A DNA stretch of 61,802 nt, filler included. It is 3 parts of 3 records of this genome, joined end to end, with 100 filler letters (N's around TTAATTAATTAA, not from the genome) between each part and the next. Parts side by side here need not be neighbours in the genome. Positions count along the whole stretch, not along the records: positions 1 to 25,850 come from SRR20825006_1345; 2 more parts are not named here. One strand, 5' to 3'. Below, piece by piece: positions 10,322-48,084 of the stretch. The first letter of the stretch is position 1. Each line of letters starts with the position of its first letter. The translations under genes and the position numbers were made by a program. Under the pieces are notes generated by a model that saw only the letters and a list, made by a program, of their open reading frames with translations, was not told the origin of the DNA and made no database searches.

Positions 10322-10879
10322 ATGGCGTCCACATTTCCACAACCTAGCTGCACCGGCGTCATTCTGGCGGGTGGTGCGTCACGCCGCATGGGTCGCGACA
10401 AAGCCACATTACCCTGGGGTGATAGCACGCTGCTCGATCATATGCGCGCCCGGCTCTTCAAGGCCGGTGTGGACCGCGTTGTCATACTCGGCAAACCGGA
10501 TGTTGAAGATGGCGTGGCCGATGAAACGCCTTTTACCGGGCCGGTCCCCGCCCTTCTGAGCTATCTGCGCGCTTCTGGCGCCGGACAGCGGCATGTTGTT
10601 GTACCTATCGATATGCCCTATCTGAGCCCAGCCCTACTCGCACCGCTTGCATCAGCTACTCGCTGGACAAGGTACGATGGTTACGTTTTCCCCTTCTCCG
10701 CCATCGGGGGTGAAATGGTTTCGGGCAGTGGTCCGCGCCTACGTGATCTGCTCCGCGCAAACAAAGCAACGCTTCTGACTGTACCGGCCTTCGCGGACAG
10801 TGCTTTCCGTAACCTCAATCATCCGGGTGATCTCCCGTCCAGCCATCCCTCTCACGCAAACGAAAGGCGCTGCCAATGA
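10322..10879 (+). CDS. mobA: Molybdenum cofactor guanylyltransferase (short, divergent)
   Basis: ILAGGASRRMGRDKA, PIDMP, FRNLNHP motifs; position in the moa operon. Confidence 0.8.
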   Translation: MASTFPQPSCTGVILAGGASRRMGRDKATLPWGDSTLLDHMRARLFKAGVDRVVILGKPDVEDGVADETPFTGPVPALLSYLRASGAGQRHVVVPIDMPYLSPALLAPLASATRWTRYDGYVFPFSAIGGEMVSGSGPRLRDLLRANKATLLTVPAFADSAFRNLNHPGDLPSSHPSHANERRCQ

Positions 10880-12153
10880 ATGCGCAAGCTCCCATCAGCT
10901 CCAAGACACTGGTTATGCAATCCTACACAGACAGCCTCACAGCTATCTGTGATACAGCGGAGGTTTTAGCACCGCACCCGGTGCCTCTCTCCGCAGCCTC
11001 AGGGAAAGTCTTGGCCTCTGACATCCGTGCATCAATCGCTGTGCCCAGTTTTGAAAATAGCGCCATGGACGGCTTCGCTTTTGCCTCCGCAGATGTAGCT
11101 GCGGCTTCGGAGAATGGGCCTGTGTCTCTTCTTGTCGTGGGCGCCAGTATTGCGGGGGATACGGCAGGCCTGTCCCATCTTGCCTCTGGACGAGCAGCAA
11201 AGATCATGACTGGCGCACCGATGCCTGACGGCGCGGACACCGTGATGCCGGTCGAAGCCGCAAGTTGGGACCACGAATACCTGACATTCACAAGCCCATA
11301 CCCGAAAGGCAGGCATGTCCGTCTTGTGGGGCAAGACATCGCGACAAACGATCTACTTCTCGGGGCTGGTACCCGAATCAAGGCTGCACATCTGCCCATG
11401 CTGTGCGCAAGTGGCGCTGCAACGGTGATGGTATTCGAAAGACCGAAGGCATGCTGGATAAGCACCGGGCAGGAAATCAGTGATGACTTCACCAAACCGC
11501 TTGCGCCCGGGCATATCTATAACGCCACTGCACTTTATGGGCAATCGGTGTGCGAGGATATGGGCGTCGAGTTTACCAGCGCCACTACGGTGCGTGACAC
11601 GCCGCAAGACTTTGCAACGGCACTTGAAACCGCACTTGAAGGGGATGCCAACATCATCTTGTCCACCGGCGGTGTATCGGCAGGGCAATATGATTTTGTA
11701 AAACCGGTGCTGGAAGATTTTGGCGCCCACATTCACGTGCACCGAGTGCGGATAAAGCCGGCGAAACCGATCCTTTTTGCAACACTGCCAGGAGGTAAAT
11801 ATTTCTTCGGTCTGCCTGGCAACCCGATCTCGACTGCGCTGGCACTCAGAGCTTTTGTGAGCCCTTTCGCTCACTTGCTTTCCGGTGTCGCGTATGAACG
11901 GCCGCTGAGGGCTCGGTTGACCAATGAGGCCCACGGCGCATCAGGCAAGACTACGTTCCTCATGGGCAAGCTCACCACAAATGAGACAGGACAACTACAC
12001 GTGACCGCCGACACAAGGCAGCAGTCTTTCCAAACCGCGCCATTTGGTCGCAGCGATGCCTGGATTGTTATCCCCGAGGGGGTGGATGCGTCAGCCAAAG
12101 GCGAGTTGGTGGACTGCATTCCCTTCACCTCAGGCATGTGTGACAGGAGTTAG
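10876..12153 (+). CDS. moeA: Molybdopterin molybdotransferase
   Basis: PSFENSAMDGFA, IMTGAPMPDGADTV, STGGVSAG.YD, GLPGNP. Confidence 0.95.
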   Translation: MNAQAPISSKTLVMQSYTDSLTAICDTAEVLAPHPVPLSAASGKVLASDIRASIAVPSFENSAMDGFAFASADVAAASENGPVSLLVVGASIAGDTAGLSHLASGRAAKIMTGAPMPDGADTVMPVEAASWDHEYLTFTSPYPKGRHVRLVGQDIATNDLLLGAGTRIKAAHLPMLCASGAATVMVFERPKACWISTGQEISDDFTKPLAPGHIYNATALYGQSVCEDMGVEFTSATTVRDTPQDFATALETALEGDANIILSTGGVSAGQYDFVKPVLEDFGAHIHVHRVRIKPAKPILFATLPGGKYFFGLPGNPISTALALRAFVSPFAHLLSGVAYERPLRARLTNEAHGASGKTTFLMGKLTTNETGQLHVTADTRQQSFQTAPFGRSDAWIVIPEGVDASAKGELVDCIPFTSGMCDRS

Positions 12154-12157
12154 GCTT

Positions 12158-13987
12158 ATGGAAACCAACACGCGTTCGAACGCATATCAGGCCTACTTCC
12201 TCGGCCCCAAGGCAGAAAACGAAGCTTGGGTCAGGGCAGAGTTCCAAGCCACTCTTGACCACTGGTTCCATTGGCGAAAACAGCTTTTCACCAATGACCC
12301 AAGTGTATCCAGCCCCGAAGATCGACGATCACCGGGTTACCTCAGAGCGAGGGAACGCATTAGTCAGGGCCTTGAGGAACTGAACGAAATGCTGAAGGCA
12401 GAGGTCCCTAAATTTCCACCGCGTTATATCGGCCATATGGTCTCGGAGCTAACGCTCCCGTCCCTACTTGGCCACTTTGCCATGCTGCTGCACAATCCCA
12501 ATAACACAAGTCGTGACGCCTCCAACATCGGCTCAAAGGTCGAGGTAGAAGTTATTGCTATGCTGGCAAAAATGCTGGGGTTCAACCCAGCCCGGGCCAC
12601 AGGCCACATAACCGGAGGCGGCACGGTTGCAAATTTCGAAGCTGTATGGCGCGCGCGCTTCCGCCAAGATCACTGGCTGAGCCTGGCACTTTATCTCGCG
12701 GAAAATCGTGGCTTAAAACTTGATCTGTTCGATGCCGCCCATATGGGCTGGAAACGCTTTGGCCAGTTGCTCTATGAACACAGTGTCCCCATCGACTCCC
12801 TAAAGGACTATAGCGCGGTGGCCAGCAACCCCTACCACTTTGGCGAACGCATGACCCGCGCTTTCGGTATGCCTTATCGTGGCCCAGTACTGCTGGTGCC
12901 GGAGAATAAGCATTTTTCCTGGACCAAGGCGGTAAATATTTTTGGTCTTGGTGAGGAGGCCTTCTGGCCTGTTCCCCTTGACGGCATGGGCAAGATGGAT
13001 GTCGCCGCTCTGCAACAGCTAATCGAAGTTGCCGAGCGCTCCAAACGCCCAATCATCATGGTCGTGAGCGTAGCCGGCACCACTGAGACCGGCGAAATTG
13101 ACCCGATAGACCAGGTGCAAGGCATCCTGAATGCCCAGAAGGAGCGCCGGGGCTGGGATATTTGGCATCATGTGGATGCGGCTTATGGTGGTTTCCTATG
13201 CACCCTCCTTCGGGGCGGTGCAAGTTCACAGGTGTTGAGCGTTTCCAACAGCGCCGCTCTCAACACGATTTCCGAGGTGCATTCGGTCACTATAGATCCG
13301 CACAAACTTGGCTATGTGCCCTATGCCTGCGGTGCCATCATCACTCGCGATCACGAAGCCTATTCCGTCTCGGGATTCGAGGCCCCATACCTCGAACGCC
13401 AACAGGAAATGCCAGACAAATGGTCTACTACTCTTGAAGGGTCACGCTCAGCAGCCGGTGCTGCTGCCACATGGCTGACTGGCAAAACGCTCGGCTTCAA
13501 CCCGAAAGGACTTGGCGCCGTGATCGAACAGACAATCCACGCCTGCCGGGCGGTGAAACAGAAGATCGAGAAAGCCATCCCTACAGCACATATCCTCACC
13601 CCGGTCGAAACAAATATCATGTGTTTCTCTCTAACCACCAAGGCTAAATCACTGCGTGAAGCTAACAGGCTCACCAGCACAGTGTTTCAGAAATTTGTCG
13701 ATTGCCCCGACTTTTCCATTTCGAAGACAACTCTTTCCATGAGCTCACATCACAAGGTTATCCAGCGTCATGTAGCCGGGTATAAAGGATCAATTGATGA
13801 TGACCATCTGGTGTTGTTGCGTTGCGTCTTCATGAACCCCTTCTGGGCAGAAGAGGAAATTAGGGAACGGCTGAGCAATGAGCTCATACATCATATCAAG
13901 GTCTGGTCCAACGACGCCGATTTACAGCAGGCAGAACAGGCTTCGCTGATGGCACGTGCCGAGAAAAACACGAAACTGGCATCATGA
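12158..13987 (+). CDS. Group II PLP-dependent decarboxylase (tyrosine decarboxylase-like, 609 aa)
   Basis: FLGPKAEN, PRYIGHM, NPNN, HVDAAYGG, SVTIDPHKLGY (PLP lysine); start moved to the ATG after AGGAG, 4 bp after the moeA stop. Confidence 0.85.
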   Translation: METNTRSNAYQAYFLGPKAENEAWVRAEFQATLDHWFHWRKQLFTNDPSVSSPEDRRSPGYLRARERISQGLEELNEMLKAEVPKFPPRYIGHMVSELTLPSLLGHFAMLLHNPNNTSRDASNIGSKVEVEVIAMLAKMLGFNPARATGHITGGGTVANFEAVWRARFRQDHWLSLALYLAENRGLKLDLFDAAHMGWKRFGQLLYEHSVPIDSLKDYSAVASNPYHFGERMTRAFGMPYRGPVLLVPENKHFSWTKAVNIFGLGEEAFWPVPLDGMGKMDVAALQQLIEVAERSKRPIIMVVSVAGTTETGEIDPIDQVQGILNAQKERRGWDIWHHVDAAYGGFLCTLLRGGASSQVLSVSNSAALNTISEVHSVTIDPHKLGYVPYACGAIITRDHEAYSVSGFEAPYLERQQEMPDKWSTTLEGSRSAAGAAATWLTGKTLGFNPKGLGAVIEQTIHACRAVKQKIEKAIPTAHILTPVETNIMCFSLTTKAKSLREANRLTSTVFQKFVDCPDFSISKTTLSMSSHHKVIQRHVAGYKGSIDDDHLVLLRCVFMNPFWAEEEIRERLSNELIHHIKVWSNDADLQQAEQASLMARAEKNTKLAS

Positions 13988-14023
13988 CACATGGTGCCAT
14001 CCATCCTCACGACAGATGGCCAG

Positions 14024-14371
14024 CTACCTGAACAACCAACCCCAATCTATCAAAGTAGGGTTGTCGATATATTTTTGTGGGTTGCTGACCACATCTTCAA
14101 GATAGCTCTTGTTCAAGCGCAGTACAGGCGCATCGCCAGCCTCAAGTCCTCGCTCTATATGGTCCATATAAACCGTCACTTCACATGTTGAAACCGGCAT
14201 GTCATCAACCAACACCAATTCAACGCCCCGGCCGGCCTGCGCTTCGCTGGCAGCCTGCCATATACGGTTATACGGAAACCGGTCGCAGCTGCGTGCCAAG
14301 GCTTCGTTACATATCTCTATATAGCGCTCGAGGTCATTCAGAGGTTTGCCGTTATCTGCTTGCTCTTCCAT
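14024..14371 (-). CDS. Hypothetical protein (115 aa)
   Basis: ATG with AAGGGAGA RBS; globular composition, ends YIDNPTLIDWGWL; FNR-like box upstream. Confidence 0.7.
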   Translation of the reverse strand: MEEQADNGKPLNDLERYIEICNEALARSCDRFPYNRIWQAASEAQAGRGVELVLVDDMPVSTCEVTVYMDHIERGLEAGDAPVLRLNKSYLEDVVSNPQKYIDNPTLIDWGWLFR

Positions 14372-14426
14372 CGGGTATTCTCCCTTCCATGCACAGCTAT
14401 CCAACCACAGCCAGCGAAAAAGGCGC

Positions 14427-14440
14427 TTGAGCAGGATCAA
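14427..14440. promoter_or_regulatory. FNR-type box (1 mismatch)
   Basis: TTGAGcaggATCAA, centred about 62 bp upstream of the 14371 start. Confidence 0.6.
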
Positions 14441-14494
14441 TTCTTGGAAACAATCTGCCCGGGGCATACAGGCACCCCGGGCAGGATAGGTTCC

Positions 14495-16873
14495 TCAATG
14501 AGAACCTCCACAAGAACCGCAGCAGATGCTGTCCGGCTGGGCCTCGTTCATAGCCAGTTGACTACCCGCTGCCACTCTCGCTGGTGTTTTATCATGAATG
14601 CCCGGCTGTATTGGCTGGCTCTCAAGCGGGCGCCGTTCACTACGGTCTAGGAGGCCCTTGATCACCTGCCATGCCACGGCGAGTGCCCCGATGATAAACA
14701 CCACATCCCCAATGGTGCGTACCCAACGCAAGGTTTCGAGCAGATTGCTCTGCATGAAGCTCTCGCTACGGGCGTACCAAAGGCCTTCCGATGCACTGGC
14801 GACAAACTGGATGATGCCAACGGGCAAGAGGCTGGTGAACAGCATGAGCACAAGCCCACCATTGAGGCCGTAGAACGCTGTTTTCATCAGTTTCTCGTCA
14901 AAAACCATTGCTGGCCGGATATAACGCAGCACCAGAATGGCAAAACCAAGCGCAAGGAAGCCGTACACACCAAAGAGAGCGGCATGTGCGTGCGTGGCCG
15001 TGGTATTGAGACCTTGGATGTAATACAGCGCAATCGGCGGATTGATCGAGAAACCAAGGACGCCAGCCCCGAGCATATTCCAGAAAGCCACAGCGACAAA
15101 GAACATAAGCGGCCACTTGAGCTGGTCCATCCAGGGCGCACGGTTCCGAAGTTTCCAATGTTCCCAGGCCTCGTGCCCGAGCACGATGAGCGGCACCACT
15201 TCAAGTGCACTGAAAGTGGCCCCCACTGCCATTACCGGTGTTGTGGTGCCGGAAAAATAGAGGTGGTGGAAAGTGCCCGGTACACCGCCCAAGAGAAAGA
15301 GCGATGCAGATGCCAACGCCGCAATCGTCGCCAGACGTTTGGAAACAAGCCCCATGCTGCTGAAGATGAAAGCGAGTGCTGCCGTGGCAAAGACCTCGAA
15401 AAAGCCTTCGACCCACAGATGAACAATCCACCAGCGCCAGTATTCCATCACTGAAATATGGGTACGCTCACCATAGAAAAAGCCAGCACCGTAAAAGAAA
15501 CCGATAGCAACGACCGACGCGGTAAAGAGCGCCAGCAGATGTTTGTCGCCCGGCTGCATAAGCGCAGGCACAATGGCCCGCATCATCAGCACAAGCCACA
15601 GCACAACGCCCGTGAACTTACCAATCTGCCACAGCCTGCCAAGGTCGACGTATTCATAGCCCTGATGGCCGAGCCAGAAGTTCCATTCCGGCGGCATCAC
15701 CTGCGCAATGGCAAGATAGTTGCCAATAAAGGACCCTGCGACCACTGCGATGAGAGCCCAGAAGAGGATATCCACGCCAAGTTTCTGGTATTTTGGGTCC
15801 TTGCCGCCATTGATAATGGGCGCCAGGAAGAGGCCCGCGGCAAGAAAACCGGTAGCGATCCAGAACAGAGCAGATTGGATGTGCCAGGTACGCACAAGGG
15901 TATAAGGGAACCATTTGGAGGTCTCAATGCCATAGAAACCCTGCCCTTCCACAGTATAGTGAGCTGTAAACCCTCCCAGGAAAACCTGAAAGACAAACAA
16001 CGCTACAACAACAAAGAGGTATTTGCCTAGCGCCCGCTGCGATGGTGTAAGCCGGAAACTGGTCAGCGGGTCTTTGGCAGGTGCGGCGGGCTCCTCTTCA
16101 TCTTGCCCACGCATGAAGGACCAGGCCCAGATGAGCCCACCAACACCAGCGATCAACAGCACCACGCTGACAATGGACCAAACGATATTCTCCGCCGTTG
16201 GCACATTACCTATCAAGGGCTCGTGCGGCCAGTTGTTGGTATAGGTTGCACCGTCCGGCGTACGCTCGGTTGACGCAGCCCATGCGGTCCAAAAGAAAAA
16301 CTCTGTCAGCCTTGCGCGGCGGTCTGCGTCCGGAAGCGTGAGCTCCTTCATAGCGTAACTTTCGCGGGTAGGCTGCAATTCGGGCGAACCACCAAACAGC
16401 CGGTCGTAATAGTCCGCGGTCCGTTCGATCGCCCGCTGGCGGCGCTGAGTGAGGACGAGCATGTCGCCTGCAGCATCATAAGTGTTGCTACGGTAGGCCT
16501 GTTTCAGCTCATACTGAAGGTTGTTCTGCTGCGCTCCCGACAGAGTTTCATAAGGCTTGCCATAGACATCCTGTGCAGCGAGCTCGAGCCAGGCCACCAG
16601 CTCACGGTGCAACCAATCAGCCGTCCAGTCCGGCGCCTGATACGCACCGTGCCCCCAAATGGAGCCAAGCTGCATGCCACCGACAGACTGCCACGCCGTT
16701 TGGCCATCAAGGATACTGTCCTTGCTCATAAGTGGTGTACCATCTTCGGTCACCACAAGGTCAGGAATAGGGGGCGCTTCCCGGTAAACCTCTCTACCGA
16801 AATATCCGAGAAAGCCGAATGTGACCACCAGTACGGAGATCAGTATCCACCATAATTTATAATATCTAGCCAT
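14495..16873 (-). CDS. norB: Quinol-dependent nitric oxide reductase (qNor)
   Basis: GSIWGHGAYQAPDW, WWIVHLWVEGFFE, GTFHHLY, HAHAALFG heme/FeB ligands; long N-terminal qNor domain; start MARYYKLWW overlaps the ytfE stop. Confidence 0.95.
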   Translation of the reverse strand: MARYYKLWWILISVLVVTFGFLGYFGREVYREAPPIPDLVVTEDGTPLMSKDSILDGQTAWQSVGGMQLGSIWGHGAYQAPDWTADWLHRELVAWLELAAQDVYGKPYETLSGAQQNNLQYELKQAYRSNTYDAAGDMLVLTQRRQRAIERTADYYDRLFGGSPELQPTRESYAMKELTLPDADRRARLTEFFFWTAWAASTERTPDGATYTNNWPHEPLIGNVPTAENIVWSIVSVVLLIAGVGGLIWAWSFMRGQDEEEPAAPAKDPLTSFRLTPSQRALGKYLFVVVALFVFQVFLGGFTAHYTVEGQGFYGIETSKWFPYTLVRTWHIQSALFWIATGFLAAGLFLAPIINGGKDPKYQKLGVDILFWALIAVVAGSFIGNYLAIAQVMPPEWNFWLGHQGYEYVDLGRLWQIGKFTGVVLWLVLMMRAIVPALMQPGDKHLLALFTASVVAIGFFYGAGFFYGERTHISVMEYWRWWIVHLWVEGFFEVFATAALAFIFSSMGLVSKRLATIAALASASLFLLGGVPGTFHHLYFSGTTTPVMAVGATFSALEVVPLIVLGHEAWEHWKLRNRAPWMDQLKWPLMFFVAVAFWNMLGAGVLGFSINPPIALYYIQGLNTTATHAHAALFGVYGFLALGFAILVLRYIRPAMVFDEKLMKTAFYGLNGGLVLMLFTSLLPVGIIQFVASASEGLWYARSESFMQSNLLETLRWVRTIGDVVFIIGALAVAWQVIKGLLDRSERRPLESQPIQPGIHDKTPARVAAGSQLAMNEAQPDSICCGSCGGSH

Positions 16874-17540
16874 GATAAGCCTCTTCCTGATAGCGCGCGA
16901 ACAGCACGTCGTTTTCAAGGTGAATATGTTCATCGAGATCGGCCTTGAAGGCTTCAAGGCCTGCGTAGAGCGCGCGCCACGTGTTGCATGCACCCCTTGG
17001 CGGGGTCAGGTTGTTCGTCAGTGTATCGATTTGCGCGACCTCGTCTCGGTGCCCCTCATGCTCCATCAGCATTACCTGGATCGGCCCCGCAGCCATCCTG
17101 CCCTGCCCACTAGCGAGCATGGGAAAGAGAATGCCCTCTTCTTTCTGCATATGCTGCTCCAGTTCCACATGCATACGGTGGAGGTGTTCAGTAAGTCCGA
17201 GAGGGCACCCAGCGCGGTCGCCGTGCACACTTTCAACGCGGTGCGCGAGGCGTTTCAGTTCTTCAAACTGCTTACGGTGAACCTTGTGGAACCGCTCAAG
17301 AACGTGCTCAATGATCTCGCTGTCTTCCGCCTGCCTCCAATCTCGTTGCTGTCCTGTCCTCAGCTTGAGCTGCTTTAGCTCTGCCTCGATCATGTGGACG
17401 TCAAGCGATGCCTTGGATGCTGCTTCCTGAAGTGTGTGTTTGCCACCACAGCAGAAACTAAGGTTATAATGGTTGAATATCGCTGTAGCGCCAGGGAGCT
17501 CCTGAGCCAACTGTGCCAGCGATGTATCCAGCAGTGTCAT
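16866..17540 (-). CDS. ytfE: Iron-sulfur cluster repair di-iron protein (RIC/YtfE/NorA)
   Basis: FCCGG N-terminal motif, HMQKEE..LFP, HIHLENDVLF hemerythrin-like ligands. Confidence 0.93.
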   Translation of the reverse strand: MTLLDTSLAQLAQELPGATAIFNHYNLSFCCGGKHTLQEAASKASLDVHMIEAELKQLKLRTGQQRDWRQAEDSEIIEHVLERFHKVHRKQFEELKRLAHRVESVHGDRAGCPLGLTEHLHRMHVELEQHMQKEEGILFPMLASGQGRMAAGPIQVMLMEHEGHRDEVAQIDTLTNNLTPPRGACNTWRALYAGLEAFKADLDEHIHLENDVLFARYQEEAYHG

Positions 17541-17610
17541 TTTCTTCTCCTTTACCCTTCATGTCCGAAGCCAAGGGCGCAGTAATTGGTGGATGTGTCT
17601 GGCCTTATAA

Positions 17611-17655
17611 AATGTATTTAACATACATCTTTAAAAGATGTAAAATATATGCATA
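17611..17655. promoter_or_regulatory. Tandem NsrR boxes in the divergent ytfE-norB / ybaN-nsrR promoter
   Basis: ATGTATttaacATACAT (17612-17628) and ATGTAAaatatATGCAT (17638-17654) match ATGYAT-N5-ATRCAT. Confidence 0.85.
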
Positions 17656-17675
17656 TTAAAAAGTCAAGAGGATAG

Positions 17676-18092
17676 ATGATGAAAAGTACGATTCGATACA
17701 TTTGGTCGCACCACCGCCGAGGCTTCTACCGCCTGCTGGCGTTTGGGAGTTTCGCTCTCGGCATCACGGGCGCTTTCCTGCCGCTTTTACCTACAACACC
17801 TTTCCTGCTACTCGGCTTCTGGGGAGCGACCCAAGCGGACTCGCGGTTCGCGCAATGGCTTGTCGCGCACCCCCGGCACGGGGCCACGATCCGGCGCTGG
17901 CAACGGGAGCACAGCCTACCCATCGCAGCCAAACGACTGGCTTGGGCTATGCTGACGGTCAATTGGGCTGTTCTCTGGTATCTGGCCACGCCATGGCCCC
18001 TGCTCACGCTGTTGGCTGCCTTGTTCTTTTCTGTTTCGGTTTATCTGTACAGATTACCAACAAGCAGCTCGTCAAAACCCGAAAGTGCCTGA
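17676..18092 (+). CDS. YbaN/DUF454 family membrane protein
   Basis: LGITGAFLPLLPTTPFLLL and WL..HP..G motifs. Confidence 0.85.
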   Translation: MMKSTIRYIWSHHRRGFYRLLAFGSFALGITGAFLPLLPTTPFLLLGFWGATQADSRFAQWLVAHPRHGATIRRWQREHSLPIAAKRLAWAMLTVNWAVLWYLATPWPLLTLLAALFFSVSVYLYRLPTSSSSKPESA

Positions 18093-18095
18093 ACT

Positions 18096-18536
18096 ATGCA
18101 TATCACCCGCTATACAGACTATTCCCTTCGTGTGCTGATGTATCTCGCAGCCAACGATGACAAACTGGCCACAATTCGGGACATTGCGGAAAGTTACGGC
18201 ATCTCCAAAAATCACCTGATGAAGATCGTTCAGCAACTGAGCGCAAAAGGGTATATTGAGGCCACACGGGGCAAGAACGGTGGTATCAGGCTGGCATCTG
18301 CACCGAAGGATATCAATATCGGCGAGCTAGTGCGGAATATAGAGCAAGGCTCACCACTTGTTGAATGCTTCGGGCAAGATAATGTTTGTATCATCACGCC
18401 GGCCTGCCAGCTAAAGAGGGTGCTTGCCGAAGCACTGGAGAGCTTTTTCGGGACGCTGGACCACTACAGCCTCGCCGACATGATCCCTCCTAAGCACAAG
18501 AGCCAATTGCAGGAGCTTCTCGGCGCCGCTTTTTGA
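18096..18536 (+). CDS. nsrR: Rrf2-family NO-responsive repressor
   Basis: MHITRYTDYSLRVLMYLA, RGKNGG, three Cys (ECF..C..PAC); adjacent to NsrR boxes and nor/ytfE. Confidence 0.9.
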   Translation: MHITRYTDYSLRVLMYLAANDDKLATIRDIAESYGISKNHLMKIVQQLSAKGYIEATRGKNGGIRLASAPKDINIGELVRNIEQGSPLVECFGQDNVCIITPACQLKRVLAEALESFFGTLDHYSLADMIPPKHKSQLQELLGAAF

Positions 18537-18726
18537 ACTCGTTGATTTTGCTCTCAGTTCTGTCTCATGGGTGCTGACGAGGAACAGGCCGTGTACAGTG
18601 TAATGGCATCTTCGACTCGACACTTTGGTCGCAGCGACAAACTCGCCAACCAACTTCCGTCCGTGCAAAAATTTTCCAGAACTTACTTAGTCGTCTGCCA
18701 CGATGGGCCGTGACATGGAGTAATAG

Positions 18727-19233
18727 ATGGCCCTTAAACGAAAAAAACACATACAGAGTCCTCAAAAGACGGTAACGATTGTAGCTAAAGACTTCCGCTT
18801 CACCCTTCACCCGATTGTTCAAAGTCACTTGAGCGCGCTGGTGGATAGTGACCCTCCGCCTAGCTGGCTTTTCAAGGATTTTGACCTTCTCCAGTCGGTA
18901 ATCATTGAAAAGCCAATTTGTGTCACACAGAGGCCCAAAATCAGTACAGATGGCCCCACTGTCGTACCGTACTTCAGTGGTTTTTCTATTGCCCGTCTTT
19001 TGGACTTTGTTCCGGTGGATTTTATGGATCGGTTGCAGATCTCACTAGCCATATATCCTAGCGCCAGTGATGATCGCATTCGATCTATCGCCACTGCTGA
19101 TGCTGTCGCACAGGCCATTTTCAATACGACTGCGACGACGCCAATCAAAGCCCTATTTCTGAGCAAAGATGCGCCTTCAAAGCCTCACCTAACTATTCCC
19201 AACGCGTTCGGCGACAACACTGAGGTTGATTAA
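18727..19233 (+). CDS. Hypothetical protein, translationally coupled to the giant recombinase
   Basis: GGAG RBS; TAATG stop/start overlap at 19231-19235. Confidence 0.6.
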   Translation: MALKRKKHIQSPQKTVTIVAKDFRFTLHPIVQSHLSALVDSDPPPSWLFKDFDLLQSVIIEKPICVTQRPKISTDGPTVVPYFSGFSIARLLDFVPVDFMDRLQISLAIYPSASDDRIRSIATADAVAQAIFNTTATTPIKALFLSKDAPSKPHLTIPNAFGDNTEVD

Positions 19234-22200
19234 TGCTAATCCATGATCTTGCTTTTGCCCTTCAGGAGGAAAACACCGGGCGCTTAATGGATTGTCTCAA
19301 ATGGATCGGCAACTCATATCCAGAATATCCCATCCTGTCACAGTTTTGCGTAGAACTCATAAACGCTCTCAATGCCTCCGAACTGGTTACACCGCCGGAC
19401 ACTTTCAAGGATCGAAATGAAGAAAAGTTTCAGGATTACGTAAAGGCCTGGATGCACCTCCTCACAACTGATACCCCTACAGGGATTGAGTCGATACCCC
19501 ACGTCGAGGACGTATACCTCGCAACCGCCGCGGCAAGTGTTCTCACGATTTACAAGTTTCAGACGCAGGAAAAGTCACGACGCAAACCCATCTCCCTGGC
19601 TAGCTTTGGCCGCGCGGAGATTGCCCTTAGAAAAATACTGCTCGCAGAGCATAAGTTACTCGATGAATTTCGCTCACGTACTTCCGATCTCTGGCAATAT
19701 TTATCTACCCTCCGCGCGTTGGAAAGCAACGGCACGTTCAGCAAAAAAATCACCGAAAACAGAATCAAACCTCTCAGACTTATATTCGAGTATGCCCTCG
19801 GCGAAAGAGAGGGCAAACACGAACACACAAAGAGCATATTGCCTGAAATTCTTAGCATCCTCGTTGAGGACGACAGTGATAACGTAGACGAACCAACACG
19901 GGTAATCCGCACCCGCACTGGTGAAGATGGCAACTTCAACCACATCCCCGCCAAAGAAAATACCTATGACGGGCCAGCGTCGAAAAGCTACGTCGAACCG
20001 CCTAGGGCTGAAAAGGCTAAACCTACAGCAGTTTCACCCCACCTCCAGCACCGCATTAATGATAAAATCAGTCAGCGCCTAGTCATGGCTCAGGTGTTGT
20101 CAGGCGCTAGCCATAAAGCACTGAGCGATAAAGACGTTGCACTTCTCAGGAAAGAATGCTTTGAACTCCTCAGCACGGAAGACCTTCAAAGCAGCCCTAC
20201 ATGGGAAAACGCGCTCTTTCTATTGCTGTCGCTGATAACGGGTCGTTCCATTCGATTCCTCCGCAATTTGCAGTTTAAATCCCAGACGGCTAAAGGCTTC
20301 CCCGGAGAACCTTGTTGGATATGGCACGATTTGCAGTGCTACCTCTATGACGTGCCTGATATCCCTCGAAGCAGATGCCCCGACATGGTCGGGGAACTTG
20401 ACGCACGCGACTTATTCTCGCAGGAAAAAACTGCGGGTTTCTTCGTTCAAATACCAGACGAGGTCGCTGAGAGGCTGGTCCGTCACAGGAACAGTTCTAT
20501 ACCCAAAAAGAACAGATTGTCTGAAACAGCAAGTCAGACTCTTTCAGCCTTCGGCTCACTTCGCGATCGCAACGTCTCACTAACGAAAGTTCAAGCTCAC
20601 CTGCGCCTGAACTTAAAACGCGCAGGCATCGACGACGTCGTTGCAGGCTACATTTGTGGCAAAACAGCTGATCAATTGCCCGCGATGTACTACACTCAAG
20701 TCTCTCAAGCAGACATCACGGCAGCGCACACAGACTACCTTGCGCACCTTGGCTTTGCCTCCTCACCCATTGCGCCTCACGACGGTAAAATCGGCAGCAT
20801 GCTGTCGCCCAAGCCTGGGTGGGTACGCGACCTTTTAGGTTATATTCGGGAACAGATAGCACTGGTTGATACTGGCAAGCGAGATGACCTATTCAACCAC
20901 CACAATTACCTAATGTTGTATACATATTTGATCCTTTGCCTCTCCACAGGGCATCGGCCGGTCAAAGCGCCCTTCCAGTATCTGCGCGATTTTGACCTCA
21001 TCTCGGGCTTTGTTTGGATCAGTGACAAAGTTGTAAGGACAAATCACGCGTCACGTATCGTTCCCTTGTGCGGCACAGCCGTCCAACAAATACAATATTA
21101 TGTGCGGCATCTGCACCAGCTCCGCGACAGACTTCGGCATAACGACTATGAAAGCTCGCACTACCTTGAGGGCATTCTCAAGAACAAGACCCCTCTCCTC
21201 TTTGTATTTGATGAGGAAGGGCACAGCTCTCTTACACCCAAAGTTCTTCAAACATGGCACGGGTTCATCAGCGCTCTGCCCGGCAACTGGCATCGCCACA
21301 CACTGAGAAGTCTTTTGACAGGCGACGTACCCCATGAGTGCCTCAACGCTTTTATGGGACATGCCCTGCTTGGTGTTGGGCCAATGAGCCGCACGAGTGG
21401 TTTTGAGTTTGCGTCACTATCTGCTCTGAAAGATCCACTGGAGCATACGATGCAGACTTATGGAGGCATCGCTCTTGAACAAACACCTCAACAATATACC
21501 ATTGAGCCATATCACGCAGTCGGCGACCATACTGCTCATATCGGCCGCACCGGCAGGGAGAAAAATCGTACGCACTTGCTAAAGAGGGCTGCTGAGAAGT
21601 GCGCTGAGATACAGGCAGAAATCGGTTTCTGTAGCATGCAAATCACCACTGCTGAGAAATACGAACATACTCTTTCCAAGGTCGAGAAACAGCTCCGTTC
21701 CCTGAATCTGTCTGCAGAGCAATACTGCCACGCAAAAAGACAACTGCAGAAAAGTGCAAAGAAGATCATTGACACGCATGGCCTTATCGTCAGCTTGCCA
21801 TCCGTCCCGTCTCAGGTTTCGTTTGAGCCATCCTTTCGCACCGAAAAATGGTTCACGTATTCGAGATATATCCATGTCTGGGACGAGGGCTTCTACGAGC
21901 GCTTGGAAAAGTTCAGCCGATCATCGCAGGAAGACGACCTAACTCTTATCGGGCTCATTTTATATTCCGCAGCAGCCAGAGGAGGGTTAGCTCACCCAAA
22001 GATGCTCGCAGACCTGGCCTTGAACCTTTCCAACCCTACGATAAAACCTCAATCCGTGGGATCATACGTCTGGTTCGACCTCGACATTCCCATCGACGGA
22101 AAAGAGGGAAGATATAGCATCAAGGTAGGAAACAAGTGCCACCAGCACCGGCACTGGTTTGTGGACGAAGTCAGCCTTGCGCTGATCATTCGTCTCTATA

Positions 22201-24560
22201 AAAAGCGTTCATCTCGCAGCAATATTTCCTTAGGTCAAACACGGCTCCTGAAGGCAAATGTTTTCGACCTAATCAAAAAAGCGATTTTTGGTGATGGCCC
22301 AAACCAAACATCGATTACGGATCTTGAAAAACTCACGACCGCGGCTTTATGGCGACATGACTGCTCGGGTGGGCCGGGAATCAGCGAGGCGTTACAATCC
22401 TTGGCAATGGGTAACTTCCAAACCTTCTCCATCGATCGTAAATCATGGACTGGCTTGTTCAGTCCCACACCTGTGGCCACAGAAATGTCCGTGCCTGTTT
22501 CGTACAAGGCCGATGATCGGAAAGCACCTTCTCGATATCGAGCTGAAGATCCACACGTTTGGGGTTCTTTCTACGAAAACCACTTGATCCCAGTAGTTCG
22601 CCCAGTTCTGCACAACTGCAAAAAAGTAAAAACGTCCGACGTGCTGGTGAAGCTGGAGGCGCTTAAAGAAACAAGAGGCCTGCCGACACATCTCCTCCTG
22701 GTATTGGACTGGCTAATCGATGTAGGGAAGCGCAGCGTGAAACCTTCCACCATTCAACGGTATTGCTCCACCTTTGTCTCAGTTTGGCTACTGGAGACGC
22801 ATGGTAGGATTCCTGACTTGCAGGATGCCGAGGAACTTGAAGAACTCTACGACAACCTCTTGACCTATCATGACAGCCCTGGCGAGGCCGCCTACATGCT
22901 TGGTCGAATGGCTGATTTTCACGCTTTTGGCATGAGGGATAACCGCTATCGACTACCTCAAATCGAGAAACAGCGATGGCACCAGTTCAAGCGCCACTCC
23001 CGTGTACGCACAAAAGTGCTGTCCTTCAGGCAGATCCAAGCCGCTATTGATTTGATGACAAGTGGTGAGCCTAGTGTGCGAGAAAGGCGAAAAATATCCC
23101 TTTTTGTAATGCTTGCTTATCGCACTGGTATGCGTCTCATTGAGCTCGTGAAATTGCAGTTGAAAGACGTGGAGGCTTCAGATGATTTTTTCATTTCAAT
23201 CCGGGACAACCAGTTCGGTAACAATAAATCGCGGGCTGGCCGTCGACAGATAAACCTAAGAGTTTTCCTCAATGATAGAGAACTAGGTGAGTTCAAATCG
23301 CTGATGGCCCAAAATGCCAGAAAGACAAACCGCAACTTGCCTGTCTTCTCCTACGGCAATACCGGATCGCCTTACCATGGAGGGCAAATCTCCAAAATGT
23401 TCTCGAAGGCAATTGCACAAATTACGGATGATGAGGATATCGTCTTTCATAGCCTGCGTCATAGCTGTCTGTCATGCCTGCACGCAACGCTTGAAGGTGA
23501 GGCAGAGATTGCGCACATGATTGTCGGTTTATCCGCAGAAAAATTAGAGGCCATCCGCGAACATCTGATGGGCCACATAGATAACCGAATGGGCCTTTAC
23601 TATACGCTCGCGGCCTTTGCCGGCCATGCTGGCCCTAAAGAGACAATGCTGAGCTACTTGCATCTCTCCGACCTAATCGTGTTCACCAAGCTTCAACGGC
23701 AGCCGCTAAAAATTGGCATCGACAAACTTGCGCAGATTGCAAGCGTGCAGGGCTCTAAAATCGAAAACCTTGAGCCTGCTGACCGCTATGAGTATTTAGT
23801 TCGCCAAAAGGTTCCGTTGATCGCCGTATCCTATCCTTTCACTTTGCCTGCCGAACAGGGTATTTCGCAGAGCAATTCAATTAGTCAGCCTAAAATACGA
23901 GCCGAATACGACCTGATGCTGGTTGATGAGATTTTACGAGCCTTGCAAGAAGGCTCTAAAGCTCGCGATCTTGCGTTCATATACGATGTAGACCGGGAGG
24001 TGATCGAAAGCTGGCATAAAAATGCCATTGAGCTTCAGTCCCTTCAAACACGCAGAGGAAACTCCCGACTGTACTCCAAAGGCAAAGAGACATCCCTTGT
24101 TCCCAACGCCCAGAAAGACAATCTTGTGAGAGTGGAGCTTGATAAGATATGCCGCTGCGTGCACCTAAAGTTGGAACACCGGTCAGCAGTGGATATCGAG
24201 CAGTTTGCGAAAGGCATTCTCGCGGCATCATCACCGGATGCAAGAACGTACAGAATTCATGATCCAGCATTTGCGGCAGAAATAGTTAATTTTTTAAGGC
24301 CGGAGGTTCAAACCGGAAGATGGGAAATGGAAGTCGATATTCCGGAGGGGCCTGATTTCGAAGCGTCAAAGAAAAAATGGAAGCACTACAACCCGTGGCT
24401 TTCGGAGGACGCCTTCAAATCACATGCGCAAAAGATTTCCGCACACCATAGGGCGGGTATTGGTATGTTGCATCTAAAACATCCCGCCAAGACAGCTAAA
24501 TCTGGCCTCCCTAGGCTGGTAGCTTATTTGATCGCCGTCGCATATGGTACGCCCAAGTAG
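19233..24560 (+). CDS. Giant (1775 aa) protein with several tyrosine-recombinase-like domains
   Basis: Complete C-proximal catalytic set R1301 (TGMR), K1332, H1406-x-x-R1409, H1465, Y1475; second set R575 (TGHR), K599, N685WHR688H, H710 with no obvious Tyr; degenerate box at R338 (ITGRS). Confidence 0.85.
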   Translation: MLIHDLAFALQEENTGRLMDCLKWIGNSYPEYPILSQFCVELINALNASELVTPPDTFKDRNEEKFQDYVKAWMHLLTTDTPTGIESIPHVEDVYLATAAASVLTIYKFQTQEKSRRKPISLASFGRAEIALRKILLAEHKLLDEFRSRTSDLWQYLSTLRALESNGTFSKKITENRIKPLRLIFEYALGEREGKHEHTKSILPEILSILVEDDSDNVDEPTRVIRTRTGEDGNFNHIPAKENTYDGPASKSYVEPPRAEKAKPTAVSPHLQHRINDKISQRLVMAQVLSGASHKALSDKDVALLRKECFELLSTEDLQSSPTWENALFLLLSLITGRSIRFLRNLQFKSQTAKGFPGEPCWIWHDLQCYLYDVPDIPRSRCPDMVGELDARDLFSQEKTAGFFVQIPDEVAERLVRHRNSSIPKKNRLSETASQTLSAFGSLRDRNVSLTKVQAHLRLNLKRAGIDDVVAGYICGKTADQLPAMYYTQVSQADITAAHTDYLAHLGFASSPIAPHDGKIGSMLSPKPGWVRDLLGYIREQIALVDTGKRDDLFNHHNYLMLYTYLILCLSTGHRPVKAPFQYLRDFDLISGFVWISDKVVRTNHASRIVPLCGTAVQQIQYYVRHLHQLRDRLRHNDYESSHYLEGILKNKTPLLFVFDEEGHSSLTPKVLQTWHGFISALPGNWHRHTLRSLLTGDVPHECLNAFMGHALLGVGPMSRTSGFEFASLSALKDPLEHTMQTYGGIALEQTPQQYTIEPYHAVGDHTAHIGRTGREKNRTHLLKRAAEKCAEIQAEIGFCSMQITTAEKYEHTLSKVEKQLRSLNLSAEQYCHAKRQLQKSAKKIIDTHGLIVSLPSVPSQVSFEPSFRTEKWFTYSRYIHVWDEGFYERLEKFSRSSQEDDLTLIGLILYSAAARGGLAHPKMLADLALNLSNPTIKPQSVGSYVWFDLDIPIDGKEGRYSIKVGNKCHQHRHWFVDEVSLALIIRLYKKRSSRSNISLGQTRLLKANVFDLIKKAIFGDGPNQTSITDLEKLTTAALWRHDCSGGPGISEALQSLAMGNFQTFSIDRKSWTGLFSPTPVATEMSVPVSYKADDRKAPSRYRAEDPHVWGSFYENHLIPVVRPVLHNCKKVKTSDVLVKLEALKETRGLPTHLLLVLDWLIDVGKRSVKPSTIQRYCSTFVSVWLLETHGRIPDLQDAEELEELYDNLLTYHDSPGEAAYMLGRMADFHAFGMRDNRYRLPQIEKQRWHQFKRHSRVRTKVLSFRQIQAAIDLMTSGEPSVRERRKISLFVMLAYRTGMRLIELVKLQLKDVEASDDFFISIRDNQFGNNKSRAGRRQINLRVFLNDRELGEFKSLMAQNARKTNRNLPVFSYGNTGSPYHGGQISKMFSKAIAQITDDEDIVFHSLRHSCLSCLHATLEGEAEIAHMIVGLSAEKLEAIREHLMGHIDNRMGLYYTLAAFAGHAGPKETMLSYLHLSDLIVFTKLQRQPLKIGIDKLAQIASVQGSKIENLEPADRYEYLVRQKVPLIAVSYPFTLPAEQGISQSNSISQPKIRAEYDLMLVDEILRALQEGSKARDLAFIYDVDREVIESWHKNAIELQSLQTRRGNSRLYSKGKETSLVPNAQKDNLVRVELDKICRCVHLKLEHRSAVDIEQFAKGILAASSPDARTYRIHDPAFAAEIVNFLRPEVQTGRWEMEVDIPEGPDFEASKKKWKHYNPWLSEDAFKSHAQKISAHHRAGIGMLHLKHPAKTAKSGLPRLVAYLIAVAYGTPK

Positions 24561-24768
24561 TTTTAAATACTCCTACCGTCGAGGAGTTGTAGATCGCTGC
24601 ACGTTTCTACTCGCAGTCACGGTCGACGTCGCAAAACAAAAATCAGTTCCAAATAATGTGCGTACAGTCCATCGCCAAAAAATAGTTGCTTGCAAGCCAA
24701 ACCGGACGCGTCTTTGCAATATTATGATAGCTGGCACCCCTCTCGGCCCTTAGATAAAATATAAGCAA

Positions 24769-24810
24769 ATATAACCATGTATAGTCATTTTACGATATAC
24801 TTGGTTATAT
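24769..24810. repeat. AT-rich inverted repeat (15-bp arms, 14/15 paired, 12-bp spacer); candidate recombination or end site
   Basis: ATATAACCATGTATA-gtcattttacga-TATACTTGGTTATAT, about 210 bp after the recombinase stop; the function is inference. Confidence 0.6.
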
Positions 24811-25030
24811 CCCGATATAAACTAAGCCAGTTAGTCGGAAGCTTAACCTGCCTTTGGATGTAGCAGTACTCTGTTGCTGTCACTATCGGAAAGCATCAGC
24901 TAGTGCCTTCGTGCACGCGTCCGCTCTCGACCCAAAGCGGACGTTCCTACGACAGAAATGTTGGCCTGCGAGTATGCCCCCAACTCGCCAGGAGCGGACT
25001 AAAGGTTCCGAGGAGCACATGAAGATATAG

Positions 25031-25680
25031 TTAGTCCCAGGGTGTGTGAAATAGTTCAGTCAAGTATATCTCAAATGCTATCGGATTTATGGGTTTGTGA
25101 AAGACCTTGAACGGTGATGCTGCTAAGGCCTGTAAATCCACTGTGCTGGTAGCATCGGTAATGATAATAGCGGGAATACTGCTATAACGTAGGTGCACGG
25201 ACGTAATTACATCAAGGCCTGTTGTGTCAGCGTCCAAGTGGTAGTCGACAACGACAAGGTCTGGCCTGCCTAGATCATCAAGTGTTTCAAGGGCGTCATG
25301 CACCGAGCTTACGCTGCGCGCGGCGCGCCCCCAACTGCGGAACAGCTCTGCAAGAGCTTCTCGTGCTTCCTTGCTGTCATCCACGATTAGAACAACGAGC
25401 CGTTTTGCAGGTATTTTGAGTCCCTTATCCAAATCAATGTCCTGGGGTTCCGCCGAAGCTGAGATGCGCGGAACTTTTGTGGAAAGTCGAAAAACAGTGG
25501 CTTCATTTTCCCAGGACTTCAGGTCAATTTTCATGTCCATTAAAGCGCAAAGCTCTTTAACAATTGCGAGCCCAAGGCCCAAGCCTGTTTGATGGGAGCC
25601 GCGTAGTGTACCTGCCTGAGCAAAGCGCTCAAAAACACGATCCATATCATCTGTGTGGATTCCGTATCCGTTATGCCTTC
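25031..25680 (-). pseudogene. 5'-truncated hybrid histidine kinase (HATPase C-terminal half plus receiver domain)
   Basis: HNGYGI..DMDRVFERF, GLGLGLAIV G-boxes, then REC motifs VDD, D, KP; in-frame TGA just upstream of the G1 box; no HisKA or N-box. Confidence 0.75.
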
Positions 25681-25850
25681 ATCGTCGTGATGAACATATC
25701 GGCGGCAATGTCTGACCTTTTACCAAATGGGTTCGTCGGGTTTTCTCTTAAACATTGAATATTGGGGTGGTTTTCTCTGGTTTTATGAAAATTTGTCCAG
25801 GTATCCGTGATAACTGGATACGAAAGCCGCAGAACTCCGAGATTGAAATT

Positions 25851-25950
25851 NNNNNNNNNNNNNNNNNNNNNNNNNNNNNNNNNNNNNNNNNNNNTTAATT
25901 AATTAANNNNNNNNNNNNNNNNNNNNNNNNNNNNNNNNNNNNNNNNNNNN
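25851..25950. other. Artificial contig linker
   Basis: 44 N + TTAATTAATTAA (stops in all six frames) + 44 N. Confidence 0.98.
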
Positions 25951-47984: not shown

Positions 47985-48084
47985 NNNNNNNNNNNNNNNN
48001 NNNNNNNNNNNNNNNNNNNNNNNNNNNNTTAATTAATTAANNNNNNNNNNNNNNNNNNNNNNNNNNNNNNNNNNNNNNNNNNNN
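47985..48084. other. Artificial contig linker
   Basis: 44 N + TTAATTAATTAA + 44 N. Confidence 0.98.

Follow-up and report, generated by a model that had tools for sequence, protein, structure and literature searches.

What kind of machine is encoded by a single uninterrupted open reading frame (ORF) of 1775 codons in which the motifs of tyrosine recombinases recur several times? The ORF, here called AB, and the small gene before it, S, lie in a 61,802-nucleotide stretch of DNA (the window, meaning the whole stretch that was analyzed). A first-pass annotation, made from the sequence alone, had taken the pair for a candidate new class of mobile element. We found that AB is a fusion of two neighboring genes, A and B, of a widespread, unnamed three-gene module, S-A-B, which appears to pass between bacteria of the sea. 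Probably, the locus is the part that carries out recombination in a self-contained integrative mobile element of small size, whose core is S-A-B, with A and B fused here. The two genes are:

18727 to 19233, plus strand: S, a small partner gene of 168 amino acids (aa) that belongs to no known family and is coupled to AB through TAATG.
19233 to 24560, plus strand: AB, the 1775-aa A+B fusion of the S-A-B module, with no internal stop.

The first-pass annotation had described the reading frames and motifs accurately. AB is open from end to end, and the stop codon of S overlaps the start codon of AB (gatTAATGcta). The C-terminal catalytic set (R1301, K1332, H1406/R1409, H1465, and Y1475), the residues of a second set (R575, K599, NWHRH at 685 to 689, H710, and GVGPMSRTSGF at 714 to 724), and the motifs ITGRS (335 to 339) and YSAAARGGL (911 to 919) are all where it had placed them. 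We modeled aa 1 to 760 (the A part, with 53 relatives) and aa 760 to 1775 (the B part, with 26 relatives) with AlphaFold2 and compared the models by Foldseek and VIA-align. The A-part model had a predicted local distance difference test (pLDDT) score of 78 and a predicted template modeling (pTM) score of 0.72, and the B-part model had a pLDDT of 82 and a pTM of 0.63. The parts of AB that matter here are:

20106 to 20759, plus strand: D1 (aa ~292 to 509), the first catalytic-type fold, with a degenerate pocket and an invariant Tyr487.
20796 to 21467, plus strand: D2 (aa ~522 to 745), the second catalytic fold, with the pocket kept and the nucleophile tyrosine not conserved.
21810 to 22502, plus strand: D3 (aa ~860 to 1090), a possible fourth, strongly degenerate fold, with the YSAAARGGL helix followed by a beta sheet.
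22677 to 22994, plus strand: core-binding (SAM-like) domain of B (aa 1149 to 1254).
23001 to 23717, plus strand: D4 (aa ~1257 to 1495), a complete catalytic domain.
23718 to 24557, plus strand: C-terminal ~280 aa of B, three short helices and then an alpha/beta domain.

All of the top Foldseek matches of the A part were tyrosine recombinases, although the matches were weak (best E value, 0.05). VIA-align resolved two catalytic-type folds in this part, D1 and D2, and both have the catalytic-domain fold of the tyrosine recombinase superfamily. The best structural match of the predicted D1 was the catalytic domain of the SSV1 integrase. In the B part, the core-binding and catalytic domains together make up the two-domain fold of a tyrosine recombinase, and the D4 model, with its standard core-binding domain, best matched Xer, Cre, and integron-type recombinases. 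The models support three tyrosine recombinase catalytic folds in AB (D1, D2, and D4), so the prediction of several recombinase folds in one chain, rather than one, held up. A fourth recombinase-like fold is only hinted at in the YSAAARGGL region: the D3 model runs helix, helix, beta sheet, helices, as in a catalytic domain, and D3 had no match in the whole-model fold searches. The C-terminal ~280 aa of B were also without a match in these searches. The first ~260 aa of AB are helical in the model, and aa 761 to 860 form long helices.

Profile searches detected only the last of these folds. Pfam and NCBIfam found a single domain in AB, Phage_integrase at aa 1263 to 1416 (D4 against PF00589: E value, 4e-13; 49.9 bits; cutoff, 27.1), and the PHROG matches, to integrase families and to phrog_33072 of unknown function, covered D4 only. 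Pairwise hhalign of the four putative folds gave no significant signal; the best pair was D2 with D4 (E value, 0.036), over the stretch from box I to the Lys. The nearest named ESM Atlas clusters to D3 were ResT/TelK_cat (0.87), Phage_integrase (0.87), Integrase_1 (0.86), and MrpR_C_cat (0.86), which serve as a lead only. Because telomere resolvase catalytic domains are among them, one could imagine a different DNA-processing role for the module: it might resolve hairpin telomeres, nick DNA for transfer as a relaxase does, or act against phages. A relaxase role was raised for the large IntB protein of SEs (integrative elements of the strand-biased circularizing type) by the authors who described them (PMC9345347; for this and all papers cited below, our statements concern the part of the source that was available). 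We regard such a role as very improbable, since D4 resembles Xer, Cre, and integron-type enzymes most, the replicons of the hosts are ordinary circles in those complete records that were examined, and the PADLOC scan returned nothing better than a JetC-like coiled-coil match with an E value of 0.03.

We aligned the catalytic residues of each fold. In D4, R1301, K1332, R1409, H1465, and Y1475 are invariant and H1406 is nearly so among 26 sequences that include split B proteins; a complete R-K-H-R-H-Y set is confined to the C-terminal fold, as had been proposed. D2 keeps its pocket in nearly all of 165 aligned relatives (R575 and R688 in 163 each; K599, N685, H689, and H710 in 161 each). Its NWxRH aligns with the canonical HxLRH, which puts Asn at the position of the first His. 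The second set had been said to have no evident nucleophile, and position 721, eleven residues past H710, where the tyrosine is expected, agrees with this: it holds Y in only 52 of the 165 relatives, F in 35, W in 17, H in 11, and T in 8, and it is T in AB. Beside the missing tyrosine, S722 is kept in 144 of 165, and position 724, the F that ends the GVGPMSRTSGF motif, is mostly L.

D1 shows a different pattern. Among 53 A proteins, it retains G337 in 50, R338 in 37, R/K452 in 47, D467 in 52, and G476 in 51, and it has no conserved Lys or His. Y487, however, is present in all 53 and, when a second alignment is consulted, in each of its 97 rows. Neither D1 nor D2 has a complete catalytic set within one domain. 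The description of the first fold as degenerate therefore applies to its pocket and had overlooked the invariant tyrosine, and the suggestion that perhaps only one fold is active is not established, given Tyr487.

D2 keeps a pocket without a tyrosine and D1 a tyrosine without a pocket, and this division suggests a composite active site formed by the two. Under this explanation, A would be a second true catalytic subunit, with Tyr487 of D1 delivered into the R575-K599-N685-R688-H710 pocket of D2, and AB would be a covalently linked XerC/XerD-like pair. The Flp recombinase donates its tyrosine to a neighboring pocket in a comparable way (trans cleavage). We think this possible but doubtful. The conservation of Y487 amid a poorly kept D1 pocket argues for it, as does its position: R/K452 precedes it by 35 residues, and the fold ends 22 residues beyond it. 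In the SSV1 integrase, 21 residues separate the nucleophile Y314 (PMC8371274) from the end of the aligned chain, and trans cleavage has been proposed for that enzyme, according to titles cited in the same paper. However, an invariant tyrosine can be structural, S722, beside the missing tyrosine, is conserved as well, and D2 could be a purely DNA-binding pseudoenzyme, as proposed for Tfp of the SEs and GinC of the GInt islands.

The second part of the question is why these folds share one chain. In typical relatives from many Proteobacteria they do not: A (~745 to 795 aa) and B (~995 to 1040 aa) are separate genes, and S-A-B is a translationally coupled operon with the small gene S first. A word-indexed search found six full-length AB relatives of 1503 to 1777 aa, conserved end to end at 38 to 75% identity, one of which (from Kordiimonas lipolytica) is annotated as a "tyrosine-type recombinase/integrase." With AB residues 1 to 1180, an exhaustive phmmer search matched 1460 cluster representatives at an E value of ≤1e-3; the number fell to 534 at 1e-10 and to 48 at 1e-30. 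Of the 1460 matches, 150 were listed, and most of those listed were stand-alone A-type proteins of 710 to 790 aa matching only aa ~300 to 750, about 20 were proteins of 1700 to 1970 aa, and one of 1031 aa matched AB aa 775 to 1168 from its own residue 13. The family is large, mostly annotated as "hypothetical protein," and spread over marine Alpha- and Gammaproteobacteria and over plasmids, including those of Acinetobacter.

We used a degenerate DNA pattern for the motif TGHRPV..PF....D.D to find loci in species genomes. It gave 16 loci, mostly in Rhodobacterales, Kordiimonas, Hyphomonadaceae, and Caulobacteraceae, plus one in Methylophaga, with two matches each in the Falsigemmobacter and Poseidonocella genomes. 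At several of them, an A-size ORF is directly followed by a B-size ORF, and all four split loci that we extended (L029 to L032) have overlapping or abutting ORFs of 178 to 188 aa (small), 773 to 794 aa (A), and 1020 to 1037 aa (B). Similar trios lie on plasmids of Vibrio cyclitrophicus (197, 743, and 995 aa, annotated as "hypothetical," "integrase," and "tyrosine-type recombinase/integrase") and Acinetobacter baumannii (145, 755, and 1062 aa). The place where the two genes meet in AB is:

21483 to 21557, plus strand: A/B joint (aa ~750 to 775), where split relatives (L029 to L034) show a stop/start overlap.

The fusion is not an assembly error. Independent assemblies (the metagenome loci L044 to L047, and contig 1 of K. 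lipolytica) also contain fused forms, with lengths of 1719 to 1783 aa, and a contig of a different strain (run X6; 21174 to 22695) spans the joint with 85 substitutions and no gap. In another run, X4, the stretch from 21512 to 21669 had no contig among those listed. We built a FastTree phylogeny of 161 D2 segments, of which a length rule classed 113 as split and 24 as fused and left 24 unclassified. The fused/split label requires nine changes on this tree, at least two of them forced by well-supported branches, and AB of the window falls in a six-member, all-fused clade with a support of 99. From these changes and the independent fused assemblies, we conclude that the fusion is real, recurrent, and old. 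The single chain had been taken for the mark of a candidate new class; the chain is real, but in itself it is no new principle, since it arises by fusion of two adjacent genes in a large family that is mostly split, and most S-A-B family members, too, follow the general rule by which elements with several recombinases encode them as separate proteins.

The small partner is conserved with both forms. Wherever sequence upstream of a fused locus was available (6 of 6 loci: four from metagenomes, contig 1 of K. lipolytica, and the window itself), an S homologue lies directly 5′ of AB. The partial copy in genome G337 also carries one. Such homologues were located in L027, L044 to L047, and L051. 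Likewise, a small ORF occupies the S position in 6 of 6 split loci examined. The profile of fused-type S matched the S of two split loci (E values, 5e-10 and 2e-8) and did not match that of the other four. S itself had no match in Pfam, NCBIfam, PADLOC, or PHROG, nor did its profile match the PDB at an E value of ≤10; one of eight S members matched Tn916-Xis in Pfam (E value, 0.003). Its Atlas neighbors were unnamed clusters (0.95) and one cluster (0.93) with ParB_N on 14% of its members, again a lead only. A predicted complex of S with A (residues 1 to 760), run without controls, scored 0.00. It is possible that S is a small accessory factor, a directionality or DNA-bending partner.

We compared loci to learn what travels with S-AB. 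A block of 6.0 to 6.4 kb is common to L044, L047, and K. lipolytica contig 1 at 84 to 94% identity; it consists of S and AB with 110 to 218 bp upstream and 16 to 417 bp past the AB stop, and BLAST with the DNA upstream of it found no match among these loci. In the window, the left limit of such a block would be:

18620 to 18726, plus strand: upstream leader, likely the left limit of the mobile block and the promoter region.

Homology to the 91%-identical copy in G337 starts in this leader (BLAST from 18636; the alignment suggests ~18620). That copy comprises S and the first 181 codons of AB before its contig ends inside the gene, and it adjoins a 2306-aa Calx-beta/RHS-type gene where the window has nsrR. 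Genome G327 presents the opposite case: it is 93% identical to the window over 10461 to 18574 and then diverges, with the nor and nsrR genes kept, no match to AB at an E value of ≤1e-8, and no S-AB. In addition, when 41 genomes of the family were sampled, 3 contained S-AB DNA, and 4 of 301 genomes of the class matched the A profile. Several genomes carry the module or its motif twice, among them that of K. lipolytica. These comparative data point to the S-AB block as a mobile unit. Because G327 keeps nor/nsrR without S-AB, the nor cluster is not its cargo, which contradicts the suggestion that the element mobilizes the adjacent nar/nor cluster. The first-pass annotation had proposed an empty-site genome as the way to map the ends; G327 is 93% identical and lacks S-AB, but the element ends were not found. 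Its broader picture of a mobile, asymmetric, multifold recombinase machine was right in spirit, with the single chain a lineage-specific fusion.

Copies also occur on plasmids of Vibrio, Aeromonas, Ketogulonicigenium, and Acinetobacter. Of the 245 plasmid records that matched, 241 are from Acinetobacter. Among the 30 plasmid matches listed, ten span A and B, all of them from Acinetobacter, and the other Acinetobacter entries match only the catalytic domain (aa ~1141 to 1556) of a "site-specific integrase." The S-A-B family may be common on Acinetobacter plasmids, with some copies beside resistance genes; in CP038501, aac(3)-IId and IS26 are near the module. Near-identical DNA is present in sequencing runs under several organism labels and in a seawater metagenome, with the same context in the runs compared; none of the runs listed with this DNA is recorded as RNA.

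A mobile element needs a site, and two stretches past AB bear on this:

24769 to 24810, no strand: a 42-bp palindrome, TATAACCATGTATAGTC-ATTTTA-CGATATACTTGGTTATA, 208 bp past the AB stop, a candidate recombination core site and right-end marker.
24984 to 25064, no strand: an 81-bp stretch, 86% identical to a stretch downstream of the 42%-identical K. lipolytica AB and in the same orientation to the gene.

The end of the palindrome is also where the first-pass annotation had set the end of its region, 24810. One arm had three matches in the window at ≤3 mismatches, compared with 0.09 expected; two of these are the two arms. We found the same arms with different 6-bp centers in K. lipolytica contig 15, G324, and G333, where the surrounding DNA cannot be aligned to the window. 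In K. lipolytica contig 15, the palindrome (center CGCTTG) lies 4.7 kb downstream of an AB copy with 75% identity, and in G324 (center CGCTTG), it lies 3.3 kb downstream of a truncated AB copy; in 3 of the 4 genomes, the window's included, a palindrome thus follows a close AB homologue on its downstream side, at 0.2, 3.3, and 4.7 kb. Between the AB homologue and the palindrome, K. lipolytica contig 15 (L028, 10592 to 14968) carries genes for an epimerase, an RNase T-like exonuclease, a metallophosphoesterase, a HipA kinase, and its helix-turn-helix partner, which look like typical island cargo. The palindrome lies between convergent gene ends, so a role as an operator is unlikely. Conserved arms around a free 6-bp center look like a recombinase core site, and from this arrangement we infer that AB acts on the palindrome. 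Palindromes near split-type modules were not comparable between loci.

K. lipolytica has two diverged AB copies, 75% (contig 15) and 42% (contig 1) identical to AB of the window. The contig 1 module (L027, 1761 to 16027, compared with 14652 to 25064 of the window) lies beside the same norB-scdA-nsrR genes in the opposite orientation, and the 81-bp stretch is inverted along with it. This second module at the nor locus would fit an invertible segment or repeated use of the locus; with an identity of only 42% between the two proteins of K. lipolytica, however, the arrangement is not a simple inversion of one segment.

S-A-B might then be a domesticated or plasmid-type site-specific recombination system that carries out multimer resolution, inversion, or deletion at the nearby palindrome and spreads as a passenger of plasmids and islands. 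Such a system would accord with the single full palindromic site found per locus, near the gene, with the lack of element ends, with the opposite orientation at the nor/nsrR cluster in K. lipolytica, and with the module on an A. baumannii plasmid that sits beside rep and parAB. We consider it unlikely. A 6-kb, three-protein machine is far above the size of known resolution systems, the 84 to 94%-identical block is all that is common to loci with unrelated left flanks, chromosomal copies are few and scattered (4 of 301), and the divergence of the two K. lipolytica proteins does not suit a segment that merely flips.

Several observations also weigh against a mobile element as the explanation for the locus. 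L044 and L047 share DNA further downstream, so their contexts are not fully independent. The K. lipolytica contig 15 copy has a DNA identity of 75%, equal to the 74% of the neighboring nor genes, and long vertical residence therefore fits as well as transfer. Contigs of four runs show no joint or circular form, although rare forms are lost in contigs, and a comparison of left with right flanks in six loci gave only words at chance level; neither another core site nor inverted repeats at the termini nor a duplicated target turned up. With a remnant of an insertion sequence (IS) at the left and the end of the contig 1.3 kb to the right, neither end of the element can be mapped in the window. The palindrome could instead be a binding site for another dimeric protein, and in G333 (center CGTTTG) it has no AB gene within 9 kb; that genome has only a 22 to 24%-identical relative elsewhere. 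Finally, the G324 copy retains only the last 501 codons of AB, and one X6 contig (from a strain ~5% diverged, at a depth of ~320) has a frame-breaking 1-nucleotide deletion at 20596, which is either a real pseudogene or a contig error; some copies therefore decay. The IS remnant is:

18516 to 18600, minus strand: IS3-type remnant of ~85 bp, the 5′ end of orfA and a terminal repeat, at the left junction of a low-GC stretch.

Our preferred explanation is still that of an integrative element, and we propose the following model for it. B would be the working tyrosine recombinase, with a core-binding domain, an R-K-H-R-H-Y catalytic domain, and large N- and C-terminal extensions. A would be a double recombinase-fold protein, its D2 providing a phosphate-activating pocket without a tyrosine and its D1 an invariant tyrosine in a decayed pocket. 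AB and S would assemble on the palindromic core site, with arms of 15 to 17 bp and a 6-bp crossover region, and AB would recombine the element ends with the target. In the synapse, A would act as a second, nonequivalent partner of B, comparable to XerC/XerD, IntA/Tfp/IntB, or TnpA/TnpB, and fusion of A and B would fix their stoichiometry at 1:1. The analysis shows the folds, the conserved residues, the operon with its fused and split forms, the block shared between different contexts, and the palindrome with its conserved arms; that the palindrome is the substrate, that A and S act as described, and that the module is active today are inferences.

Is the module already known under another name? 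We found papers on SEs and on GInts and none on the S-A-B module or on tandem recombinase folds in one chain, although the supplements of the SE and GInt papers might hold relatives. We know of no tandem folds in one chain in Tn554-type or recombinase-in-trio (RIT) recombinases. In XerC/XerD, two nonequivalent recombinase active sites work in one synapse, as proposed for AB; XerC/XerD, Flp, and the SSV1 integrase are, however, separate proteins of ~300 to 420 aa, whereas the putative donor and acceptor folds of AB are consecutive in one chain.

SEs have the core genes intA-tfp-intB-srap, and the smallest is 6.35 kb without cargo (PMC9345347, PMC10214605). Like S-A-B, these small elements have, at one end, a coupled operon for several recombinase-fold proteins and a single small protein, with one member (Tfp) that has a recombinase fold without the catalytic motif and one recombinase (IntB) that is unusually long in its N-terminal region (PMC9345347, PMC10214605). 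SEs carry imperfect inverted repeats with a 6-bp spacer (PMC9345347, PMC10214605) and pass through a nicked circular copy-out intermediate; at S-AB, one palindrome with a variable 6-bp center lies downstream, no repeat was found at the left, and the contigs showed no joints. The gene orders also differ, since S-A-B (or S-AB) has no separate IntA-type gene: the SE of pAQU1 encodes proteins of 545, 614, 671, and 161 aa with the small gene last, whereas S-A-B starts with the small gene (168 aa), followed by ~775 and ~1015 aa. Moreover, Tfp is said to lack the RHRY residues (PMC9345347, PMC10214605), whereas A has two folds and keeps R-K-N-R-H. We searched the four proteins of the pAQU1 SE, the one SE tested, with A and B profiles (hmmsearch) and with S and AB (phmmer), and the best score was 0.4 bits. 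In Alphaproteobacteria, the authors of the SE paper report having found no Tfp or Srap and no ginC-ginD blocks (PMC10214605).

GInts are ginABCD genomic islands of Pseudomonas and other bacteria in which every gene is needed for excision (PMC5385486). They resemble S-A-B in that one of their recombinase-like proteins, GinC, is partly degenerate and their fourth protein is small, and their layout, with the recombinase operon 5′, the cargo right after it, and a short AT-rich 3′ end (PMC5385486), matches the palindrome that follows variable genes in K. lipolytica contig 15. Unlike S-A-B, they have three separate recombinase-like genes with ginD downstream, a comparison made by description only. 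Tn554-type elements (tnpA, tnpB, and tnpC) and RITs share with S-A-B more than one tyrosine recombinase per operon, and Tn554 also has a small accessory protein; by description only, Tn554 differs in that both TnpA and TnpB carry the RHRY motif (PMC10214605). RITs consist of three adjacent recombinases (PMC10214605), separately encoded, whereas S-A-B has two recombinase-fold genes (or one fused gene) and a small nonrecombinase gene. The earlier expectation that the homologues do not belong to a characterized element stands in that no similarity to the pAQU1 SE proteins was found; GInt, Tn554, and RIT are set apart by description only. We regard SE, GInt, and Tn554 as probable analogues of S-A-B, with SE and GInt the nearest in design: cargo-less members of ~6.3 kb are a feature shared with S-A-B, and 6-bp spacers may be another, given the center of the candidate site (PMC9345347, PMC10214605, PMC5385486).

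A stronger claim is that S-A-B/S-AB is a new class of minimal integrative element (~6.1 to 6.6 kb without cargo) with two different active sites in one chain, the classical D4 and a composite of Tyr487 from D1 in the pocket of D2. We advance it only tentatively and think it rather improbable as a whole. If it is true, the D1/D2 site would be an intramolecular version of trans cleavage, and an AB dimer would be a complete, inherently asymmetric four-site synapse that could order or restrict strand exchange. SE, GInt, Tn554, and RIT elements are poorly understood mobile DNA in which the need for several recombinase-like proteins, "dead" ones among them, is unexplained. In the S-A-B family, one and the same machine occurs naturally both fused and split, and the clean division of catalytic residues between the tandem folds D1 and D2 is a novel feature that can be tested. 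The division of work among nonequivalent recombinase subunits could be addressed with a few point mutants and the 42-bp candidate site, and S-A-B would be an annotation marker for a class of genomic islands missed by current tools.

The surroundings of the module are limited by the makeup of the window. Positions 1 to 25850 are one contig, equal to a public contig of exactly 25850 bases, artificially joined to two more by linkers (44 N, TTAATTAATTAA, 44 N) at 25851 to 25950 and 47985 to 48084. The terminase and TonB receptor genes are on another contig than S-AB, and the terminase and everything else right of 25950 are therefore not neighbors of the module. In run X2, depth over the final 30 bases ahead of the first linker is about double that of the contig, so that the contig ends in a repeat. 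To the left of S are a quinol-type NorB (14495 to 16993), ScdA/YtfE, DUF454, and an Rrf2/NsrR regulator (18096 to 18536). The 1.3 kb to the right of the module include the 3′ part of a sensor-kinase/receiver gene, whose 3′ end the 81-bp stretch overlaps:

25031 to 25645, minus strand: truncated hybrid sensor-kinase gene, with the end of HATPase_c and a receiver domain, and the N-terminal half gone, in the part of the window with the lowest GC content (0.44).

The GC content is 0.48 to 0.51 over the genes of the module and 0.52 to 0.57 to the left of it, a drop that counts in favor of mobility. The IS3-type remnant takes the place of the last ~20 codons of nsrR (18483 to 18600), and the ends of other contigs match 18516 to 18555. 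It matches K. lipolytica contig 3 at the start of an IS3-like gene pair (126 and 326 aa), and this relative of the element (L043, 6823 to 7290) looks intact. G327 has an even shorter IS remnant at the same nsrR position.

An Rfam scan of 18400 to 25850 gave no match at an E value of ≤1, and promoter and terminator scans of the module region gave no signal above that of shuffled sequence. A short GC-rich hairpin, GTCCGCTCTCGACCCAAAGCGGAC (24905 to 24947 in the window), recurs in several genomes of the family at 91 to 96% identity, including L048 (9532 to 9558) and contig 41 of G337, and looks like a REP-type repeat.

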